Below, one piece after another: positions 1,203 through 42,595 of a stretch of 42,595 nt of DNA. The position numbers and the translations under genes are program-made. Below the pieces are notes generated by a model that worked only from the letters and a program-made list of their open reading frames with translations, was not told the DNA's origin and searched no databases. Where the stretch lies: the IMG/VR virus record IMGVR_UViG_3300045988_182590; one strand, given 5' to 3'. How positions within the stretch are numbered: the stretch's first letter is position 1; the number at the start of each line of letters is the position of its first letter. This DNA is from a virus.

Positions 1203-1319
1203 CGTTTTACCTGCGATAAGAAACTGTACAAAAAAAATCCTTTTATGCAGAACGGCGTTTGTAGTACAGGCAAACCTTACGGGGTCGCGCCCGACGTTCT
1301 GCACTCTGAAAGGTATTTT

Positions 1320-2141
1320 ATGCAAAAAAAGAAATCATTTTTAATTTACACGGAGTCGCTATCAGTTCTTGACGAACTGAACAAAGAACAAATCGCCGAT
1401 TTGTTCTTAGCGATTAAAGACTATCAGAACGGCGTCGAACCTAAATTAAATGGATTGATGAAAGCCGTATTCTTGCCTTTCAAAAATTACTTTGACGAAA
1501 ACGCTGAAAAATATGAAAAAGTTTGCGAAAAGCGCAGAAACGCTGGTAGTTTAGGCGGTAAAGCAAATGCTACCAAATGCAAGCAAATGCTACCAAATGC
1601 TACCAAATGCAAGCAAATGCTACCAAATGCTACCAAATGCAAGCAAATGCTACCAAATGCTACCAAATGCAAGCAAATGCGCTATGATAATGATTCTGAA
1701 TCTGATTCTGAATATGATTCTGATTCCGATGTTTCTAACGAAACATTAAAAAAAGAAATTTCTAAAGAAAAAACGGAAATCACAAAAGGATGCCGTTTTG
1801 AAAACTCACCGTACTTCAATGAAACAATGCCAAAAGAATTTGAAACCGAGTCTTCAAAAATGAATCCGTTTCAATCGGCAGAAAGAGAGTATCAATCATT
1901 CAAAGATTACTGGGCAGGAAAAACTGGAGCAACAGCGACCAAAAAAGATTGGATAGCAACTTGGCGAAACTGGCTTAGAAACTCTCGAACATTCAAAGAT
2001 ATTTCCCACGTTTTAAATCGGGAAGCGGTTAAAAACCAAATGGCGTATTTGGAACAAATGAAAGCACAGGGGGACGAGTTCTTTATCCAGCGGGCGCGAA
2101 CACGGCTTAAACAAATCATTGAACAGGAGCTTGAGAAATGA
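1320..2141 (+). CDS. Putative replication initiator / replisome organiser with internal iteron array
   Basis: Lies directly upstream of and overlaps the DnaB-type ATPase gene. The C-terminus YQSFKDYWAGKTGATATKKDWIATWRNWL resembles DnaD/phage initiator tails. It contains a 120-bp repeat array. ATG 1320 has an aaagg ribosome-binding site; the ORF is open from 1245. Confidence 0.5.
   Translation: MQKKKSFLIYTESLSVLDELNKEQIADLFLAIKDYQNGVEPKLNGLMKAVFLPFKNYFDENAEKYEKVCEKRRNAGSLGGKANATKCKQMLPNATKCKQMLPNATKCKQMLPNATKCKQMRYDNDSESDSEYDSDSDVSNETLKKEISKEKTEITKGCRFENSPYFNETMPKEFETESSKMNPFQSAEREYQSFKDYWAGKTGATATKKDWIATWRNWLRNSRTFKDISHVLNREAVKNQMAYLEQMKAQGDEFFIQRARTRLKQIIEQELEK
1561..1680. repeat. Twelve contiguous 10-bp units (aagCAAATGC / tacCAAATGC) with a 30-bp super-period; candidate origin iterons
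   Basis: Read directly. CAAATGC recurs every 10 bp, 12 times. All three frames stay open. Followed by gattctgaa-type repeats at 1686..1730. Confidence 0.9.
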
Positions 2142-5452: not shown

Positions 5453-5584
5453 ATGACACGCGAAGAATTACTCAAAAAAGTAGCTGAAACAGTATGCGGA
5501 AGCCGTGAACAAGCGCACGGAAACCCCGCTAACACGTTTAAGCGAATTGCACGCCTTTGGACAACGTATTTGCAGAAGGCGTGA
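5453..5584 (+). pseudogene. N-terminal half (43 codons) of a small conserved phage protein (DUF6378-like); the partner half is at 7910..8068
   Basis: MTREELLKKVAETVCGSREQAHGNPANTFKRIARLWTTYLQKA-stop. Family members continue with the DVA.MM...H.DSW.D..GY block, which is found 2.3 kb downstream. Confidence 0.65.
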
Positions 5585-5591
5585 GGTGAAA

Positions 5592-5798
5592 ATGAACATT
5601 CTTGAAAAATACAGGAAAGATAACGGCTTGACGTATGCCGAACTCGCTGAACGTATGGGGCAAAAACCTTGCCGTGTTTGGAAGTGGTGCAAAAAAGGAA
5701 TCAGATGCCCCACAGCAATAATATCTATTTCAGAGCTTTTGAAGCTTGAAAAATCGACGGTTTTTGAAAAAATGACTGAAAGGAAAGAAAAAAAATGA
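5592..5798 (+). CDS. Helix-turn-helix DNA-binding protein (Cro/YdaS-like)
   Basis: GLTYAELAERMGQKPCRVWKW HTH; gaggtgaaaATG ribosome-binding site. Confidence 0.55.
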   Translation: MNILEKYRKDNGLTYAELAERMGQKPCRVWKWCKKGIRCPTAIISISELLKLEKSTVFEKMTERKEKK

Positions 5799-6052
5799 GT
5801 GAGAACATCAAAGATGTAAACGGAGTCGATTCGGCACGCTTGCTGTCGTATCTTGAGCGAATCGAACGTTTAGAAGAGGAACGAAAAGCTCTTCAAATCG
5901 ACATTAAAGAGGTGTTTGAAGAAGCAAAATCGGCGAATTTTGACGTAAAAGCAATCAAAGAGCTTTTGAAAATTCGCAAAAAAGACGAACTGGAACGCCA
6001 AGAACAGGAATACGTCGTCGAACAGTACCGACGCGCTCTTGGCATTGATTGA
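5795..6052 (+). CDS. GapR-like (DUF2312) DNA-binding protein
   Basis: LLSYLERIERLEEERKALQIDIKEVFEEAKSANFDVKAIKELLKIRKKD closely parallels Caulobacter GapR. Confidence 0.8.
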   Translation: MSENIKDVNGVDSARLLSYLERIERLEEERKALQIDIKEVFEEAKSANFDVKAIKELLKIRKKDELERQEQEYVVEQYRRALGID

Positions 6053-6055
6053 AAG

Positions 6056-6083
6056 ACGGCGGGAATTATCCCGCCGTTTTTTC
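6056..6083 (+). terminator. Rho-independent terminator, shared by the convergent genes
   Basis: Stem acggcggga/tcccgccgt with a 4-nt loop, followed by tttttt. Confidence 0.8.
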
Positions 6084-6245
6084 TTTGTACACCCATTTTT
6101 CGCCGTCAAACACAATGTCAAAACCGCTTTTAAGGTTTAACGGCTCTTTGAACGTATGAAACGGCGGTAAATCCGATTCGGAGTGGCATTTTTGCGCCCC
6201 GTTCCATTTTCCTGTTTTTTTGTCGTATGAATAAGCAATCAGCAT
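6066..6245 (-). CDS. 59-aa protein homologous to the N-terminal domain of the tail-fibre assembly protein at 20443..20886
   Basis: MLIAYSYDKKTGKW..LPPFHTFKEPLNLKSGFDIVFDGEKWVYKEK versus ..LPADCTLIEPPEAKEGFDIVWNGDAWEYKEQEK. caggag ribosome-binding site. One residue below the ORF-track cutoff. Confidence 0.6.
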   Translation of the reverse strand: MLIAYSYDKKTGKWNGAQKCHSESDLPPFHTFKEPLNLKSGFDIVFDGEKWVYKEKTAG

Positions 6246-6272
6246 AAGCGACTCCTGTTTGTTATAAAAATT

Positions 6273-6309
6273 CCCCGCCGAATAAGGAGGAAAATCGGCG
6301 GGGGTTTTA
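6273..6309. terminator. Stem-loop terminator
   Basis: Stem ccccgccga/tcggcgggg with a 13-nt loop, tttt on the plus strand, T-rich on the minus strand. Confidence 0.6.
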
Positions 6310-6356
6310 GTGCTGAATGGAATGTAGTTTCTTTATGGCATAAAAAGCCCAAAAGT

Positions 6357-6432
6357 TCAACCATTTTTTTCAGAATCAATCAGCTCTTTGATTTCATCCC
6401 GCTTCATTCTGCCGACATAAAACAAACCGTCG
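6357..6432 (-). pseudogene. Detached C-terminal coding piece of the glutaredoxin-like gene (..GLFYVGRMKRDEIKELIDSEKNG-stop)
   Basis: Joins in frame to 8231..8385 if 6427..8385 is flipped. Confidence 0.7.
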
Positions 6433-6460
6433 ATACCCGCAAATATCCGTACACCGTCAT
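6428..6460 (-). pseudogene. Detached first 11 codons of a serine invertase (MTVYGYLRVST, contains the catalytic Ser motif)
   Basis: ATG 2 nt after the methyltransferase stop. Near-identical to the N-terminus MTVYAYLRVSS at 20410. Runs out of frame into a stop after 18 codons. Confidence 0.8.
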
Positions 6461-6462
6461 TT

Positions 6463-7017
6463 TCAGATTTCCTTGTCAAATTTTTCAGTTTCGTTTCCCC
6501 AGCAATCCCAACCCGCCCGATGCTGGCGGGCAAATAGTTCTATTCGTTCCCCGCCGCAAAGGTTTTCGATTAAAGAATACTGTTCATCTGGTTTTCTGGA
6601 ATGTTCGCGGACAACACCTTGAAGAACGTTCCGAGTAGATTTGTTAAGAGTCCGAGGGTGTCCGCGCGTTCCGACAAGCAACAGTTCGGTGGCGCAACGG
6701 AAAATATATCCAGTTCCGAAAGCGGTTTTCCCGTTCTTTGTCGTCTTATGCCAAGATGCGCCTGTCTTGTATTTAAACCCCCAAGCCGCCATTGTTTCCA
6801 AAGCTTCGGGCAACATTGGAAACGTCGCCCACATAAATAGGAAACAATCTTTGTCGGCAATGTCGATAACAGGCAAAGTTTTAATGTCGTTTATAGGCAT
6901 ACAGGAATAATGACTTTCCGCGCCTTTTGCCGTGATTCCTTTTGACGAAAATGTTTTGAACTTCCACGGCGGGTCGGCAAGGATGCAGGCATATTTTTTA
7001 TTCGGAAATGGAATCAT
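6463..7017 (-). CDS. MT-A70 family N6-adenine DNA methyltransferase
   Basis: ILADPPWKF (DPPW catalytic motif); size and layout typical of phage MT-A70 enzymes. Confidence 0.8.
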   Translation of the reverse strand: MIPFPNKKYACILADPPWKFKTFSSKGITAKGAESHYSCMPINDIKTLPVIDIADKDCFLFMWATFPMLPEALETMAAWGFKYKTGASWHKTTKNGKTAFGTGYIFRCATELLLVGTRGHPRTLNKSTRNVLQGVVREHSRKPDEQYSLIENLCGGERIELFARQHRAGWDCWGNETEKFDKEI

Positions 7018-7338
7018 TTTTCGCTGTCCTTGTATTCAAAAGAACGCCCCTTTGTTTTCTTTCCTTTCCCGATTATTTTGGCAACAGTCGTCCCGTATTT
7101 TGACATTGCGTCGTGTACGGAATCGAAAACTTCCTGTGTTTCGACACAAATAACAGGACGTGAACGGAAGCCCCCCTTTACGCTTTTTCGACGACGGAAT
7201 CCGTTTTTTCATTTCTGCGATAACACCGTCGGGAGTGATTTTTGAACACTTCAACAAAAAGTCGGCTACCGCCTGTTCGGGCGTATCAAAACCGATAGGC
7301 GCAACAGCCGCCTTTTTCAAAACAACAAGATATTTCAT
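7014..7338 (-). pseudogene. Frameshifted gene. The C-terminal part is a small DNA-binding module of the type seen on phage homing endonucleases
   Basis: Frame 0 gives MKYLVVLKK..KKRKGG. After the G6 run (C6 at 7171..7176) the +1 frame reads FRSRPVICVETQEVFDSVHDAMSKYGTTVAKIIGKGKKTKGRSFEYKDSEK and stops in an ATGA overlap with the methyltransferase start. Confidence 0.55.
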
Positions 7339-7727
7339 TCTTCCTCTCCTTTTAAAAATTCTTCGTTAATTTTTTTCCCTGATTGGTCTTGTTTCTCGAC
7401 TTTAAGTGTGTATTTCATTTTCTTTCCTTTCTTTTTCCTTTTCGATAAGAGGGCGAGGAAGTCCAAAAACACTTTCCAAAATGCCTGCCTTATTCGCCCG
7501 TTATTAAGGCACTTCCACAATGTAGGACGCAATGATTCTCTGTTTTCCCCGCCTATTTCCAGTTCAGCGGGCAGTCGCGGTTTATTCTTTATTCCCCGCC
7601 GTCCGTTTTCGGTTTTACCCGAAAAATCAATTCCAACAGTTAGACGAGAAAAGACATCCTGTTGGAGCTTCACCCGCCGCTCTGTCAATTCGTGCGACTT
7701 CAGCGTCAATCGCAAATAAGACGGCAA
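7335..7727 (-). CDS. Hypothetical protein (weak)
   Basis: 130-aa ORF downstream of the promoter at 7822..7850; composition unconvincing; competes with the small ORF at 7627..7773. Confidence 0.3.
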   Translation of the reverse strand: MPSYLRLTLKSHELTERRVKLQQDVFSRLTVGIDFSGKTENGRRGIKNKPRLPAELEIGGENRESLRPTLWKCLNNGRIRQAFWKVFLDFLALLSKRKKKGKKMKYTLKVEKQDQSGKKINEEFLKGEEE

Positions 7728-7773
7728 AAATCAAGAACGCCACACTTGCAATTAAAAAAACAAAATTTTTCAT
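7627..7773 (-). CDS. Small protein with an N-terminal transmembrane/signal segment
   Basis: ggaaaggtgaaaaATG ribosome-binding site; MKNFVFLIASVAFLIFAVLFAIDAE...; 48 aa. Confidence 0.4.
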   Translation of the reverse strand: MKNFVFLIASVAFLIFAVLFAIDAEVARIDRAAGEAPTGCLFSSNCWN

Positions 7774-7821
7774 TTTTCACCTTTCCTTTTTTCGACTCGG
7801 CTTATCGCCTTTCGATAATTT

Positions 7822-7850
7822 TTTGTACCAAATTTAAAAACATAGGTCAA
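7822..7850 (-). promoter_or_regulatory. Sigma70-type promoter TTGACC-17-TACAAA with an extended -10 TG
   Basis: Minus strand reads TTGACCtatgtttttaaatttggTACAAA. Shares atgttt and aatttggtacaaa with the promoter at 10389. Confidence 0.7.
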
Positions 7851-7880
7851 CATCTTTTTTACTTTTTTTCAAAAAATGTT

Positions 7881-7908
7881 TTGATTTTTTAAAATTCACG
7901 AATAAAAT
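7881..7908 (+). promoter_or_regulatory. Candidate promoter TTGATT-16-TAAAAT, divergent from 7822..7850
   Basis: Hexamers read directly. Confidence 0.45.
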
Positions 7909-7909
7909 C

Positions 7910-8068
7910 AACGACGGAATCGACGTTCGTATAACGGAAACGGATGTCGCCGTTATGATGACACTTTTTAAAATTGCCCGCTTGCAGGGAAATCCGAAGC
8001 ACGAGGATTCGTGGGTTGATGCGGTGGGATACTTGGCTTGCGGATGCGAAAGAGAAACGGAAAAATAA
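7910..8068 (+). pseudogene. C-terminal half of the DUF6378-like gene (no start codon)
   Basis: NDGIDVRITETDVAVMMTLFKIARLQGNPKHEDSWVDAVGYLACGCERETEK-stop. Same strand and codon phase as 5453..5584. Confidence 0.65.
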
Positions 8069-8070
8069 CA

Positions 8071-8256
8071 ATGCTTGATGATGATGTTATCATCTACATT
8101 GAACAAAACGGGGCGTATACGTCCCGTCTAACGTTCAATATGAAGACGATAAGAAAGCTGACAAAACAAGTGCGTAAAGAGGTCATTGAAGACTTGGAAA
8201 GCGCAATAGATTTTATGAAAGGATTTGAAAATGGCAACTCTGATTTCAACTCGTAA
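8071..8256 (+). CDS. Hypothetical protein
   Basis: ATG 8071, 61 aa (MLDDDVIIYIEQNG...). Confidence 0.45.
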   Translation: MLDDDVIIYIEQNGAYTSRLTFNMKTIRKLTKQVRKEVIEDLESAIDFMKGFENGNSDFNS

Positions 8257-8422
8257 TTGTTTCAAATGCAGGGAAATAAAAAGGGTGTTTCCAGACCTCG
8301 ACGTTGTTTACGCTGAAGATATGCCCGCTGAAGAACTTTCAAAGAAAAACATAACACAAGTCCCCGTTTTGCAAACTGCCGACGGACAAACAGGATTGCG
8401 ACAATCAGAAAATCGGTGTTGA
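8231..8422 (+). CDS. Glutaredoxin/NrdH-like thioredoxin-fold protein with a chimeric, non-native C-terminus
   Basis: CFKC redox motif and ..ITQVPVLQTADG. The last 11 residues are an out-of-frame reading of invertase codons. Confidence 0.6.
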   Translation: MATLISTRNCFKCREIKRVFPDLDVVYAEDMPAEELSKKNITQVPVLQTADGQTGLRQSENRC

Positions 8423-8426
8423 AGCT

Positions 8427-9269
8427 TTGGCAAAACGTCGCGGGCTTGTTGTTGATAAATGGATTGAAGACGACGGCGTGTCAGGGACGAAAGAACCCGA
8501 AAAGCGCGCGCTCGGCGGTGTTTTGAAAAAACTGAAAAAGGACGACGTGATTCTTTGTTCAGAACTGTCGCGACTCGGTCGTAAATTGTTTATGATTATG
8601 AGAATACTTGAACACGCAATGACAATCGGGGCGCATATTTTCACGGAAAAGGAAAATTACGAACTGGGCGACAACGTGCAGAGTAAAGTTCTTGCTTTCG
8701 CTTTCGGACTGGTCGCCGAATTGGAACGGGAAATGATTAGCAAGCGGACCAAAGAAGCCCTCGCCGCAAAAAAAGCAAGGGGAGAGAAACTCGGTAGAGC
8801 TTTTGGCGCGAAAAACAAAATTCACAAATACGATGGTTTCTCTTTGGAGAAGTTTGAAAAAGATTATCAAAAAACTTTTTCCCTTAAATATTGCTTGGGG
8901 AAACAAAATCTGTCCACCTCGTATTTTTACGGCGGAGGTTTCAACGAAACATTAAGAGCAGAAATAATGGAGATAATCGAGAAACACAAGAAAGATAAAC
9001 CTATTGGCATTTATTGTGTAAATACTAAACATTTTCAGAAAAACGCTCTAAAAGCGTTTGGAACAACAGAAATAAAACCGATTGTTCGACTTTCCGATTT
9101 TAAGGTTTATAAATCGATTCGCTCTCTTTGGTATGATAACTTTTCAAAAGAGCTTAATCCTACTATTTATAATCTAAAAAAACTGGCAGAATGTATACAT
9201 AACGGGGACGAGTTCCACGGAAAATTCTTCGAGTTCAAAGATTTTTATGACGGCGTTTCAATCGGATAA
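8427..9269 (+). CDS. Serine invertase (Hin/Gin/Mpi-like) lacking its first ~10 codons including the catalytic Ser; extra ~100-aa C-terminal domain
   Basis: VSGTKEPEKR..SELSRLGR..QSKVLAFAFGLVAELEREMISKRTKEALAAKKARGEKLGR, then an HTH-like LGKQNLSTSYFY. Homology extends upstream of the TTG start to ..TDKQDCDNQ (from 8382). Confidence 0.75.
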   Translation: MAKRRGLVVDKWIEDDGVSGTKEPEKRALGGVLKKLKKDDVILCSELSRLGRKLFMIMRILEHAMTIGAHIFTEKENYELGDNVQSKVLAFAFGLVAELEREMISKRTKEALAAKKARGEKLGRAFGAKNKIHKYDGFSLEKFEKDYQKTFSLKYCLGKQNLSTSYFYGGGFNETLRAEIMEIIEKHKKDKPIGIYCVNTKHFQKNALKAFGTTEIKPIVRLSDFKVYKSIRSLWYDNFSKELNPTIYNLKKLAECIHNGDEFHGKFFEFKDFYDGVSIG

Positions 9270-10289: not shown

Positions 10290-10388
10290 AAAGCTTTCCT
10301 TTCATTAAAAATGCTTACGTTTTCAGTTTATCAAAAAAAAGCGGTTTCTGCGATATTTTATTTTTTTGAAAAAAAACAAAAAAAATGC

Positions 10389-10417
10389 TTGCTTAATGTT
10401 TAGGAATTTGGTACAAA
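10389..10417 (+). promoter_or_regulatory. Sigma70-type promoter TTGCTT-17-TACAAA with an extended -10 TG
   Basis: TTGCTTaatgtttaggaatttggTACAAA, about 50 nt upstream of the first gene of the block. Confidence 0.65.
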
Positions 10418-10466
10418 GAAAACAAGGACAGGGCGAATCGGGTGCTCTGAAAAAAGGAAAAGGAAA

Positions 10467-16610: not shown

Positions 16611-16633
16611 ACAACGTTTAATCTGCCGAATTT
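16611..16633. repeat. Left copy of the 23-bp inverted repeat acaacgtttaatctgccgaattt
   Basis: Perfect reverse complement of 17217..17239. Confidence 0.95.
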
Positions 16634-16934
16634 AAATGATAGGATTCCACAAGGAAGCGGAAGCCGCGGAACGGTCGGCACGTATTTATCTGAGAGCTTG
16701 CCAAACATTAAAGAGTATGTTCCATCCTCGCTACGTTGCGATTTTGGGAATTCATCTGTCTCTGGTAGTGTTTTTGAAATAGGCGACGCATCAGGTTACA
16801 AATACACTGCTGGAACGGGTTTCGGGTCAACCTCTGGATTTGACTTAAACGTATCACGTAAATACCCTACATACAAAGACAACGCTCCAGTCCAACAATC
16901 CGCGACGGTGGTTGTTTTCTGCATCCGATACTAA
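16611..16934 (+). other. Silent alternative tail-fibre C-terminal cassette (no start codon; begins inside the inverted repeat)
   Basis: Frame open from 16566. TTFNLPNLNDRIPQGSGSRGTVGTYLSESLPN... continues the tail-collar motif and ends CIRY-stop like the expressed cassette. Confidence 0.8.
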
Positions 16935-17830
16935 TATCGGATGCAATATAAGCACGTGGCGTAGGCGGGAATAACTCTATCAACATTTGAATAAACTTGC
17001 GACGAACGAGATGCGTCGAATCCAACCGCCACATCATTCGCTTCCGAACCAGCGGGATTTCCTCTTACAACGCTGAATGTATTATAAAAAGCTCCGCTTG
17101 TTTTAAAGGATAGTGCGATTCTGTCACCAGTAAAAACGCCTGTAATGTTCGGTAAACTTCCGTTTCCTATCTCGCCAATAGGAATAGAACCAGAGTACCA
17201 CGGTGCACGATCAAGCAAATTCGGCAGATTAAACGTTGTATTTCCGTCCCCTGCACCCCACGTTGTCCCGATGACATTGAACAGACGCGCGTAAGTGATG
17301 CGGGAAATAGCCGCGCCGTTGCAAATCAGATAACCGTCGGGAGCGTCATTTGCAGGCCAAGTGATAATTATTCCTGTCGGAAGTCCCGCGTCAATAAAAG
17401 CCCAATGCACGCCGTCAAGATATTCGGGATTTGTTAAAAAGTTAAACGTGTTGTTTTCGACAAGGGAATAAACCGCCGTCGGTTTTCCGCCGACAATCGC
17501 CCACAACAAAGCCCCCTGCGGATACCCGCCGATAGCGTCTGAAACTGCTTGATTGAACGAATATGTACCGCCGTTTTGAGCGAAGAAGTTATGTTGCGAA
17601 ACGGTGTTAAAAAGACCGTTAAAGTCTTGCTGTTTCGGGGGAAGTCCCGATACCTGTGTCGGCAAAGGATTTTCAATTACGGGCATACGGGTAATGGCAG
17701 GAAAACCCTCTTGGAAAGATGCACGATTCGTCCCTGTTGCGCCGTTCGGAATAGCGTTAATGTTTTCGCTTGTCGCCTGTGCGGCAATCGGTTGAGGGAT
17801 TACGACGGGGGTTGTATTTGAAGTCGCCAT
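16931..17830 (-). CDS. Tail fibre with a phage tail-collar domain
   Basis: GIIITWPANDAPDGYLICNGAAISRITYARLFNVIGTTWGAGDGNTTFNLPNLLDR. Confidence 0.8.
   Translation of the reverse strand: MATSNTTPVVIPQPIAAQATSENINAIPNGATGTNRASFQEGFPAITRMPVIENPLPTQVSGLPPKQQDFNGLFNTVSQHNFFAQNGGTYSFNQAVSDAIGGYPQGALLWAIVGGKPTAVYSLVENNTFNFLTNPEYLDGVHWAFIDAGLPTGIIITWPANDAPDGYLICNGAAISRITYARLFNVIGTTWGAGDGNTTFNLPNLLDRAPWYSGSIPIGEIGNGSLPNITGVFTGDRIALSFKTSGAFYNTFSVVRGNPAGSEANDVAVGFDASRSSQVYSNVDRVIPAYATCLYCIRY
17217..17239. repeat. Right copy of the 23-bp inverted repeat, inside the tail-fibre gene
   Basis: aaattcggcagattaaacgttgt; encodes TTFNLPN on the minus strand. Confidence 0.95.
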
Positions 17831-19652: not shown

Positions 19653-19997
19653 TTAACCCGCAATCGTTGTTTCCCCGTAAACCGTCGAAACGTTCATTTC
19701 ATATTTTAAAGTGCTGTCTTCAATTCGCATTGCAAAATTCACAACAGAATTTACGCCGTCAATCGCTTCAACGTTATTCACAATTTGTTTTCTAAACAAA
19801 AAAACGTCGGGCGGCGAATTGAAAACAGAGCCAAAATAATCAACGCCAACATTCGTTGCCAACTGACATTCGCCTAAAACCGTCTGAATCCGCTGTTTTA
19901 TGACCAATGCCAAAGCGTCAATATCAGACACCAACGCCAGATTGCCTAACGCATCTAAATAAACGTCATTGTCCGAATTTGTCGCTATCGTTTTCAT
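19653..19997 (-). CDS. Baseplate W/gp25-like small protein (Mu gp46 position)
   Basis: 114 aa; position; LALVIKQRIQTVLGE pattern. Confidence 0.5.
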   Translation of the reverse strand: MKTIATNSDNDVYLDALGNLALVSDIDALALVIKQRIQTVLGECQLATNVGVDYFGSVFNSPPDVFLFRKQIVNNVEAIDGVNSVVNFAMRIEDSTLKYEMNVSTVYGETTIAG

Positions 19998-20410
19998 TGA
20001 ACGCCTTTCATTTCGTTAAATCCTATAACAATTTGAAATCTTTGTAAAGGCAAAATCACGGGACGGAAATACAACATTTTCGACTGCGGCGAATCATCAA
20101 GAACAAAGTTTTCTTTAACCGAGTAAACACGAACGCCCTTTTCAAGCAAATCTTCAAACAAGCGGCAAAGTGTGAATATACGGCGGGACAAGCAGGACAA
20201 TTCAGAAACAATAACAACATCGCCCGATTTCAAACGTCGGGCAAGGCTTCCAAGATTACGGAGTTTCGGCTCTTTTGTCCCCGAAACTTTGTCAACAATG
20301 TATTTGTCGATTTGAACATTCAAAGCAACGGCTTTGGCATCCACGCCTTGCCGCTGATTTTGTTCGTCTTGAGAAACAGATGATACCCGTAAATATGCGT
20401 AAACAGTCAT
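19994..20410 (-). CDS. Truncated serine-recombinase catalytic domain (paralogue of 8427..9269) without E-helix or HTH
   Basis: MTVYAYLRVSSVSQDEQNQ...VSGTKEPKLR...SELSCLSRR...QSKMLYF, then unrelated sequence running into the W-like start. Confidence 0.7.
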   Translation of the reverse strand: MTVYAYLRVSSVSQDEQNQRQGVDAKAVALNVQIDKYIVDKVSGTKEPKLRNLGSLARRLKSGDVVIVSELSCLSRRIFTLCRLFEDLLEKGVRVYSVKENFVLDDSPQSKMLYFRPVILPLQRFQIVIGFNEMKGVQ

Positions 20411-20442: not shown

Positions 20443-20886
20443 TTATTTGGGTTCTTCAAGCGTCTTGAGCTTTTCCTCAAGTTCGTTAATCTGCGCCCGC
20501 CACCCGTCACGCTCGGAAACAACGGCATCTAAATCATACGGCAATTCTTGTCCTCTCAACGAAGCTTCGGTGCATTTCAACACTTTGTAATCCGTTTCGG
20601 AAAGTTTTGCTTTCAGCTCCCAGATTTCCTGTTGCGTCTTTTCTTTTTCGGTCGGGACGTAAGGTTCGGGTTCTTTCGGTTTTTCCTGTTCTTTGTATTC
20701 CCAAGCGTCGCCATTCCAAACGATGTCGAAACCCTCTTTTGCTTCGGGCGGTTCAATCAGCGTGCAGTCTGCGGGCAAAAGCCAAATATCCTTGCCTTGC
20801 AGTTTAGACTCCAAAGGGTCTTTGTGCATTTCTTCGGATTGTTGAAACGTCTTTTTTTCTTGGTCGTAGCGATAGCAGATAGCCAT
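20443..20886 (-). CDS. Tail-fibre assembly protein (Tfa / Mu U-like)
   Basis: LPADCTLIEPPEAKEGFDIVWNGDAWEY parallels lambda Tfa [22 protein letters not shown]; helical C-terminal half. Confidence 0.6.
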   Translation of the reverse strand: MAICYRYDQEKKTFQQSEEMHKDPLESKLQGKDIWLLPADCTLIEPPEAKEGFDIVWNGDAWEYKEQEKPKEPEPYVPTEKEKTQQEIWELKAKLSETDYKVLKCTEASLRGQELPYDLDAVVSERDGWRAQINELEEKLKTLEEPK

Positions 20887-42444: not shown

Positions 42445-42595
42445 ATGACTGAAAAACTAATCAAATGCGCTTGGTGCGGCGCATACTTCAAAGAAAAAGA
42501 ACGCCCACACGGAAGCCGACAGAAATACTGTTCTGTGAAGTGTCGCGTTAAAGCAAATTATGCTCAAAAGGCGGAAACTTTGAAACAATCCAAAC
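42445..42595 (+). CDS. Zinc-ribbon protein, 5' part. The CDS crosses the circular junction and ends at 325 (118 aa in total)
   Basis: ATG 42445 follows gagggataaaaa. MTEKLIKCAWCGAYFKEKERPHGSRQKYCSVKCR is a CxxC...CxxxC ribbon. The frame is continuous with ORF 59..325 through the overlap. Confidence 0.6.
   Translation, partial: MTEKLIKCAWCGAYFKEKERPHGSRQKYCSVKCRVKANYAQKAETLKQSK
42477..42595. repeat. Second copy of the terminal overlap (identical to 1..119)
   Basis: Exact identity to 1..119. Confidence 0.97.

Follow-up and report, generated by a model that had tools for sequence, protein, structure and literature searches.

The window analysed here is the whole 42,595-nucleotide stretch of IMG/VR virus record IMGVR_UViG_3300045988_182590, a complete circular genome in which an exact 119-bp direct repeat stands at the two ends (1–119 and 42477–42595), giving about 42,476 bp when closed. 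Its early region holds three accessory genes that are each split into two separated pieces: a small serine recombinase (invertase) gene, a glutaredoxin (Grx)-like gene, and a DUF6378 gene. Relative to all sequenced relatives, the early region of this lineage is the product of two successive conservative inversions, termed inv1 and inv2 below. In the following list of features, capital letters name the blocks of the region in the order A-B-C-E-F in which relatives carry them, a prime marks a block that is reversed in the window, and j1 to j4 are the junctions between blocks; HTH stands for helix-turn-helix and ORF for open reading frame.

5453–5584, plus strand: N-terminal fragment of the DUF6378 gene, 43 codons with the foreign tail KA-stop (Pfam DUF6378 profile 1–38 of 81)
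5576–5577: junction j1 (A/C'), a product of inv1 with overlap AA (BLAST breakpoints against L001 and L104; spanned by 13 contigs)
5578–6426, minus strand: segment C, inverted with respect to relatives (L104 match)
5592–5798, plus strand: 68-residue HTH gene, in segment C
5795–6052, plus strand: GapR-like gene, in segment C
6066–6245, minus strand: 59-residue ORF, in segment C
6357–6426, minus strand: orphan 3' end of the Grx-like gene, LFYVGRMKRDEIKELIDSEKNG-stop
6427–6432: junction j2 (C'/E'), a product of inv2 with overlap CCGTCG (spanned by 12 contigs)
6428–6460, minus strand: orphan first 11 recombinase codons, MTVYGYLRVST, including the catalytic serine (100% match to residues 1–11 of homologues)
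6433–7909, minus strand: segment E, inverted with respect to relatives, with the recombinase stub, the MT-A70 gene, three small genes and a promoter-like intergenic stretch at about 7774–7909
6463–7017, minus strand: MT-A70 methyltransferase gene (Pfam E 2.7e-34)
7910–7911: junction j3 (E'/B), the other product of inv1, overlap AA (spanned by 13 contigs)
7910–8068, plus strand: orphan C-terminal part of the DUF6378 gene (NDGIDVRITETDVAVMM...CERETEK-stop), which rejoins in frame with 5453–5577
8231–8422, plus strand: Grx-like gene with a CFKC motif; codons 1–52 are native and the tail QTGLRQSENRC is out-of-frame recombinase sequence
8380–8385: junction j4 (B/F), the other product of inv2, overlap CGACGG (spanned by 12 contigs)
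8386–9269, plus strand: recombinase gene from codon 12 on; the first possible start, TTG at 8427, gives 280 residues without the nucleophile

Gene fragments and their restored products

A sequence-only reading of the window had described a reciprocal in-frame exchange between the 5' end of the recombinase gene and the 3' end of the Grx-like gene, and we found the exchange as it was described. On the minus strand, 2 nucleotides past the stop codon of the MT-A70 gene, an ATG at 6460 opens the reading frame MTVYGYLRVST, which then continues through VCFMSAE to a stop. On the plus strand, the frame of the 280-residue ORF (8427–9269) extends upstream without a stop to about 8355, with the reading ..FCKLPTDKQDCDNQ.., and the two loci carry the proposed pair of hexamers, CCGTCG at 6427–6432 and CGACGG at 8380–8385. 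Flipping 6427–8385 in silico restores, as had been predicted, a recombinase of 305 amino acids that covers positions 1–144 of the 145 in the Pfam Resolvase profile (PF00239, E 4e-33). By tblastn, the ORF as it now stands shares 98% identity with the restored protein; it covers profile positions 27–144 only and lacks residues 1–25, including the Y-x-R-V-S motif, confirming that the nucleophile is missing. The stub is indeed the N terminus of a serine recombinase, with the restored Ser-10 aligning with Ser-10 of γδ resolvase and with the Gin serine. The motif of the serine recombinases is accordingly absent from the present ORF 8427–9269 and present in the in-silico restored gene.

The same flip produces a 74-residue ORF that ends ..TADGLFYVGRMKRDEIKELIDSEKNG. 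It had been called a Grx/NrdH-type protein. Residues 1–72 match the thioredoxin-domain family PHROG 22 (E 1.3e-7) and a CFKC motif is present, but no Grx- or NrdH-specific model matched, and the score against Pfam Thioredoxin_3 (16.8 bits) lies below the curated cut-off of 24.8. The present 63-residue chimera matches no Pfam family. Both restored products have counterparts in the databases, the 74-residue sequence exactly (P0011, on other contigs) and the 305-residue protein in a form that differs by one residue (P0004).

The third gene follows the same pattern. When its two parts are rejoined, the DUF6378 gene encodes 93 amino acids that cover positions 1–79 of the 81 in the Pfam profile (E 2e-29), and an intact 93-residue gene is found in relatives. 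All three split genes thus rejoin into full-length, family-consistent proteins, and the fusion tails that they now carry (KA, VCFMSAE, and QTGLRQSENRC) are short out-of-frame peptides. The double inversion has pseudogenised three accessory genes.

Order of the two inversions and distribution of the arrangement

The flip of 6427–8385 is real but does not tell the full story, as undoing it alone does not yield the gene order of the relatives; a second inversion is present. About seven related lineages carry the order A-B-C-E-F, whereas the window reads A-C'-E'-B-F. The carriers of the ancestral order (L001, L003–L005, L007, L103, L104, and L119) are 93–98% identical to the window, stem from other samples, and were among the contigs fetched by the intact 74-residue protein (L001–L008), the intact invertase (L099–L104), and the 68-residue neighbour (L119). 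On one strand they have the genes for DUF6378 (93 residues), a 61-residue protein, the Grx-like protein (74 residues), and a 59-residue protein; next, on the opposite strand, come the GapR-like gene and the HTH gene of 68/69 residues, and then the promoter region, the small genes, the MT-A70 gene, and the recombinase gene.

Five BLAST blocks relate the window to L001 and L104: A, up to 5577; C', 5576–6432, reversed; E', 6427–7911, reversed; B, 7910–8385; and F, from 8380 onwards. Window positions 5576–6432 correspond to L104 8381–7526 on the minus strand (97.4%), and 6427–7911 to L104 10034–8380, also on the minus strand. In the relative, each block runs straight on into the next: the overlaps measure 2, 6, 2, and 6 bp, without loss or gain of a base. 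The remainder of the approximately 20 kb compared is collinear.

As far as could be worked out by hand, only one two-step route connects the two orders. Inv1 joins s1, inside the DUF6378 gene (..tatttgcagAAcgacgg..), with s3, in the promoter region 14 nucleotides upstream of the ATG of the 68-residue HTH gene (..aaaatcAAggcgtg.. on the opposite strand), with the 2-bp overlap AA. Inv2, the inversion of the sequence-only reading, joins s2, at codons 50–52 of the Grx-like gene, with s4, at codons 10–12 of the recombinase gene, with the 6-bp overlap CGACGG. Because the CGACGG copies at s2 and s4 are direct in the ancestral order, inv2 was possible only after inv1. The joining of s1 and s3 turned B-C over, bringing the s2 and s4 copies into inverted orientation; the joining of s2 and s4 then turned B'-E over, yielding A-C'-E'-B-F with three genes split. 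In this structural and historical part of the explanation, leaving the cause aside, we have high confidence.

Each of the four junctions is spanned by 12–13 fetched contigs at 99.4–100% identity. These derive from PRJNA217052 runs, ERZ2663xxx/ERZ2664xxx assemblies, and a BRIT16 scaffold, and bear NODE_, k127_, and Logan contig names; BioProject PRJNA217052 is cited by a Fiji-cohort paper. The orientation counts rest on assembled contigs. In these assemblies the orientations do not coexist as they do in an invertase system, all contigs having one orientation. The sequence-only reading had proposed a recombinase-off and possibly locked state; "locked" is apt, and a switch is not supported, all contigs of the lineage sharing one orientation at all four junctions. 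The exact 63-residue chimeric product was found on 13–16 contigs, and the 43-residue DUF6378 fragment on 22, of which all those listed and long enough have the full window arrangement.

The restored junctions, which the sequence-only reading had proposed to look for in relatives, are both carried by related contigs. The contigs with the exact 74-residue restored protein are all of other lineages and from other samples, and the exact restored 305-residue protein is absent from the collection. For this lineage, the collections contained no intermediate or reverted form, and no contig combined j1 with intact Grx-like and recombinase genes. Among GenBank phages (blastn, distant mode) there was no relative of the region, methyltransferase fragments being the only matches. 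In IMG/VR, a junction pattern search returned nothing and a methyltransferase query returned only distant homologues, which are uninformative for arrangement typing. A single metagenome scan added four more intact invertase 5' ends and zero new arrangements.

Compared with L104, the recombinase coding sequence shows 21 synonymous differences and 1 non-synonymous difference, indicating that the gene was under purifying selection and functional until shortly before breakage. Localized conversion beside the core was considered for two substitutions. It was dismissed for GGC to GGT, as GGT is common in intact relatives; AAG to AAA is synonymous, occurs in this lineage only, and was taken as a private single-nucleotide polymorphism. 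Taken together, these data indicate that the rearrangement is very probably a fixed dead end and not a programmed switch.

A 58-nucleotide A+T-rich, promoter-like repeat (7819–7876 and 10363–10420; 72% complementary, with a 26-nucleotide core at 88%) is inverted in the window and direct in relatives, a change that is a by-product of inv2.

The recombinase, the tail-fibre inverton and the altered region

The catalytic domain of the recombinase is 65–75% identical to ordinary invertases of about 200 residues from gut Alphaproteobacteria, and the first ~70 nucleotides of the gene are identical to those of such invertase genes in L124, L126, and L129, which hints at the host group. The AlphaFold model of a 96% identical protein (P0002) contains a helix at 109–142 and a three-helix bundle at 165–193, with a predicted local distance difference test score of 86–90 over 161–210. 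Foldseek aligned about 210 columns of this model to Tn3 and γδ resolvase, and a BLASTP alignment to a 200-residue invertase with an HTH_7 domain runs to residue 194. Judged by the model, the protein thus has the long E helix and the C-terminal HTH of its family. An extra α/β domain at 244–295 of the P0002 model falls outside the family definition. Phage invertases of this kind (280–316 residues) share a conserved C-terminal extension of about 110 residues, VRLSDFKVY ... GDEFHGKFFEFKDFYDG (window 8850–9269, plus strand), which has no Pfam match and is modelled as a small α/β domain.

Homologues mostly keep the synonymous positions of a block in the 5' coding region, GA.TGCGACAATCAGAAA, which is only a hint that the block might act as a cis recombinational enhancer bound by Fis. 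The breakpoint s4 was also considered as a conserved DNA element in the 5' end of the invertase gene and was rejected, as synonymous sites vary freely around codons 3–12 among homologues. It was further considered as an attP inside the gene, but neither an integrated form of the phage nor an integrated copy of the 305-residue form was found in 185,579 reference genomes.

Other contigs show further variation around this gene. In L103 (5001–5868) the invertase has been damaged independently: 15 residues are deleted in the E-helix region and the frame is shifted (P0053, 191 residues). This independent decay in the L103 lineage indicates that the invertase is dispensable. In a sister group (L099–L102), the same invertase gene sits after an N6_Mtase gene, not after MT-A70. 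In L123, L124, and L126 (about 8580–8710), invertase genes of about 200 residues from gut Alphaproteobacteria have inverted repeats of 25–29 bp right at their 3' ends; these repeats enclose 56–74 bp and resemble small hix-like invertons.

Two features elsewhere in the window bear on what the recombinase does:

16611–17239: tail-fibre cassette inverton with a perfect 23-bp inverted repeat, ACAACGTTTAATCTGCCGAATTT (repeats at 16611–16633 and 17217–17239)
19994–20410, minus strand: second serine recombinase gene, a truncated remnant (Pfam Resolvase profile 1–112 of 145)

The 23-bp repeat lies inside the gene for a 299-residue tail-collar fibre, at TTFNLPNL, and is kept in the relative L104. A silent alternative cassette for a 99-residue C terminus (16611–16934, plus strand) stands opposite the expressed one; both end in CIRY, and other phages express homologues of the silent one as tail-fibre C termini. 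Flipping 16611–17239 in silico gives a 304-residue fibre with a different 99-residue C terminus, in frame. A repeat at the boundary of constant and variable parts and a silent in-frame C terminus, the marks of a tail-fibre cassette inverton, are thus both present. The flipped protein was not found in the protein collection, where the present fibre form alone is on record. We conclude that 16611–17239 is a probable natural substrate of the recombinase and that, in relatives, tail-fibre switching is likely driven by the 305-residue enzyme.

The recombinase that starts at 20410, which the sequence-only reading had cited for comparison, proved to be incomplete. Past ..QSKMLYF its sequence leaves the family, and neither an E helix nor a DNA-binding domain for it turned up in the window. 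Its neighbours are a baseplate-wedge gene on one side and a tail-fibre-assembly-like gene on the other, and its relatives are truncated at other points (113–150 residues). With no intact recombinase left in the genome, the phage itself cannot reverse the rearrangement and, for the same reason, the tail-fibre switch is probably frozen in this lineage.

The genes of the early region that remain intact may still all have a plausible transcription source upstream, and this would account for the survival of the lineage. The 68-residue HTH gene and the GapR-like gene would now be transcribed behind the early rightward genes, and the MT-A70 operon appears to retain its own promoter region. The DUF6378 remnant, the 61-residue gene, and the Grx-like chimera would now be faced by the promoter region formerly directed at the HTH gene. 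Promoter-like hexamers at 7866–7908 were not enriched over shuffled sequence.

Two side observations concern other genes. The 59-residue ORF at 6066–6245 (minus strand) is homologous to the N terminus of a 147-residue tail-fibre-assembly-like protein (20443–20886, minus strand; BLASTP E 3e-10), so that a tail-gene fragment sits among the early genes. The 298-residue ORF at 1245–2141 (plus strand), which is annotated as DUF6291 on relatives, repeats the peptide NATKCKQMLP in tandem, three times in full and a fourth time in part.

Cause of the inversions and comparison with known systems

The four breakpoints share no site architecture or consensus; s2 and s4 have the central hexamer in common and nothing in their flanks. 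Compared with the tail-fibre site of the same genome, s1–s4 showed no significant resemblance (Monte Carlo P 0.86), with P 0.08 for shared 7-mers, and the resemblance to a hix-like consensus was not significant either (P 0.06). Neither in the window nor in L104 did the surroundings of the segment contain inverted repeats longer than 6 and 2 bp, and inverted dyad sites of about 26 bp with an identical 2-bp core were present neither at 6427/8385 (6 bp) nor at 5576/7910 (2 bp). Neither inversion uses the cognate tail-fibre site, and the CGACGG core is G+C-rich. The sequence-only reading had judged the two in-frame repairs unlikely by chance. By our calculation a 6-bp overlap arises in about 0.1% of random break-joins, but the hexamer CGACGG is frequent in the window, which has 63 copies against 29 expected from shuffles, perhaps through codon usage or as a motif. 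An overlap of this length, rare by chance, is what would be expected of homology-guided joining; a serine recombinase needs none such.

From these data we favour recombinase-independent illegitimate recombination over off-target activity of the invertase. Both inversions could have arisen by short-homology or replication template-switch break-and-join, possibly aided by phage RecT-like and YqaJ-like proteins; a RecT-like annealing protein is encoded in the window, and relatives carry a gene called as YqaJ family. The hit on the invertase gene would then be a coincidence within a dispensable region. As a single statement of structure and cause together, this explanation is tentative, and we give it slightly less than even credence. 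Several observations weigh against it. All four junctions are base-exact, whereas a few bases are usually lost or gained in illegitimate joining. The 2-bp overlap of inv1 is too short for homology-driven exchange and equals the 2-bp stagger of serine recombinases. Two rare events fall within 2.8 kb, beside and inside the recombinase gene. As the counts are of assembled contigs, a minority orientation may have gone unseen. Finally, the spontaneous inversions verified experimentally in Salmonella all involved 12 bp or more of inverted homology (PMC3411829).

The same observations lend some weight to an alternative that we consider less likely, namely that the 305-residue phage invertase or a host paralogue made both inversions at non-cognate sites, the second of which cut the enzyme's own codons 10–12 and so ended the series. 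Conservative and reciprocal joining at all four junctions resembles recombinase chemistry, and both events lie within 2.8 kb about the gene. The series ends with the death of the enzyme, as expected for an absorbing state, and spontaneous inversions as a rule require 12 bp of homology or more (PMC3411829). The overlap of inv1 is exactly the 2-bp AA, and AA/TT centres the inverted repeats beside the homologous invertase genes. The centre of hix is also AA/TT. Moreover, one 7-mer of the cognate site recurs in s1 (ACAACGT) and another in s2 (CTGCCGA). The sites are nevertheless not significantly like the cognate site or the hix-like consensus (P 0.86, 0.08, and 0.06), and the identity of s2 and s4 is confined to the centre and does not extend into the flanks, where a DNA-binding domain would read. 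The core is G+C-rich, and the cognate site took part in neither event; secondary-site events of Cin are said to pair one cognate with one quasi site.

Far less probable is a programmed, reversible multi-site switch, with the four breakpoints as weak but true sites, that would turn the invertase, Grx-like, and DUF6378 genes on and off together, with host invertases reversing it in trans. The inversions are precise and in frame, genomes of gut Alphaproteobacteria, the host type, carry many invertases (65–75% identical in the catalytic domain), and assemblies show the majority orientation only. Against such a switch, all contigs of the lineage have a single orientation, the other being found in different lineages only, and the inverted repeats are no longer than 6 and 2 bp. 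In addition, the fusion tails are out-of-frame junk and not alternative proteins, and a return to the ancestral state would take two ordered steps. A self-gating version of this system, in which the invertase would reversibly disconnect its own nucleophile-coding 5' end together with two genes and host invertases would flip them back, is a shade more improbable again. An assembly or chimera artefact in this one contig has virtually no chance of being correct and is refuted by independent assemblies, in agreement with the sequence-only reading: the same four junctions recur in contigs from different samples and assemblers, with 6427–6432 and 8380–8385 each crossed by 12 contigs.

The rearrangement provides a base-resolved natural case of gene-breaking balanced inversions in a phage whose ancestral state is kept in relatives. 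A circulating gut phage lineage has lost its sole complete invertase gene and yet persists across Fiji-cohort runs and other samples. With its switch of tail fibres, and hence of host range, probably frozen, the lineage could serve as a natural control for the worth of tail-fibre switching in the gut. If the invertase did make the cuts, the locus would preserve a rare natural instance of off-target activity ending in self-destruction, and would bear on how safely such enzymes are held in check. For genome scans there is also a caution, as an in-frame "repair" proves that an inversion happened, not that the inversion is a switch.

Among known systems, the closest are Gin and the G segment of Mu, Cin and the C segment of P1, Min of p15B, and Hin of Salmonella. 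Like these, the restored gene encodes a small serine recombinase with the nucleophile motif and, as modelled, an E helix and an HTH, and the genome holds a classical-looking tail-fibre C-terminal cassette with a 23-bp inverted repeat. Unlike them, the split-gene inversions took place at 6 and 2 bp of identity with no dyad, are seen in one orientation, and destroyed the enzyme, and the protein bears a family-specific C-terminal extension of about 110 residues. Secondary "quasi" crossover sites of Cin/Gin-type invertases were reportedly described by Iida and Hiestand-Nauer in the 1980s. The events here are similar in being rare conservative inversions at targets other than the normal ones, where an identical central dinucleotide is needed; they differ in that neither partner is cognate and the resemblance is not significant.

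The integrases of SSV1 and Mx8 have the attachment site inside their own gene; they are tyrosine integrases, and their integration is programmed and reversible. The crossover in the window likewise lies inside the recombinase's own coding sequence and splits the gene, but the search of reference genomes revealed no integrated form of this phage. In contrast to the shufflon and Min, the four sites are without a common consensus and the arrangements give no alternative in-frame proteins.

Intragenic and partial-intergenic invertons (bioRxiv 10.1101/2023.03.11.532203) also have endpoints in coding sequence and create premature stops when they flip. They are marked by recognisable inverted repeats, reversibility, and mixed orientations in reads (bioRxiv 10.1101/2023.03.11.532203), none of which was found here. 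Whereas the verified spontaneous short-repeat inversions had 12–18 bp of homology (PMC3411829), against 6 and 2 bp in the window, the two inversions resemble that class in having short homology at both endpoints and, on the explanation that we favour, in being independent of a recombinase.

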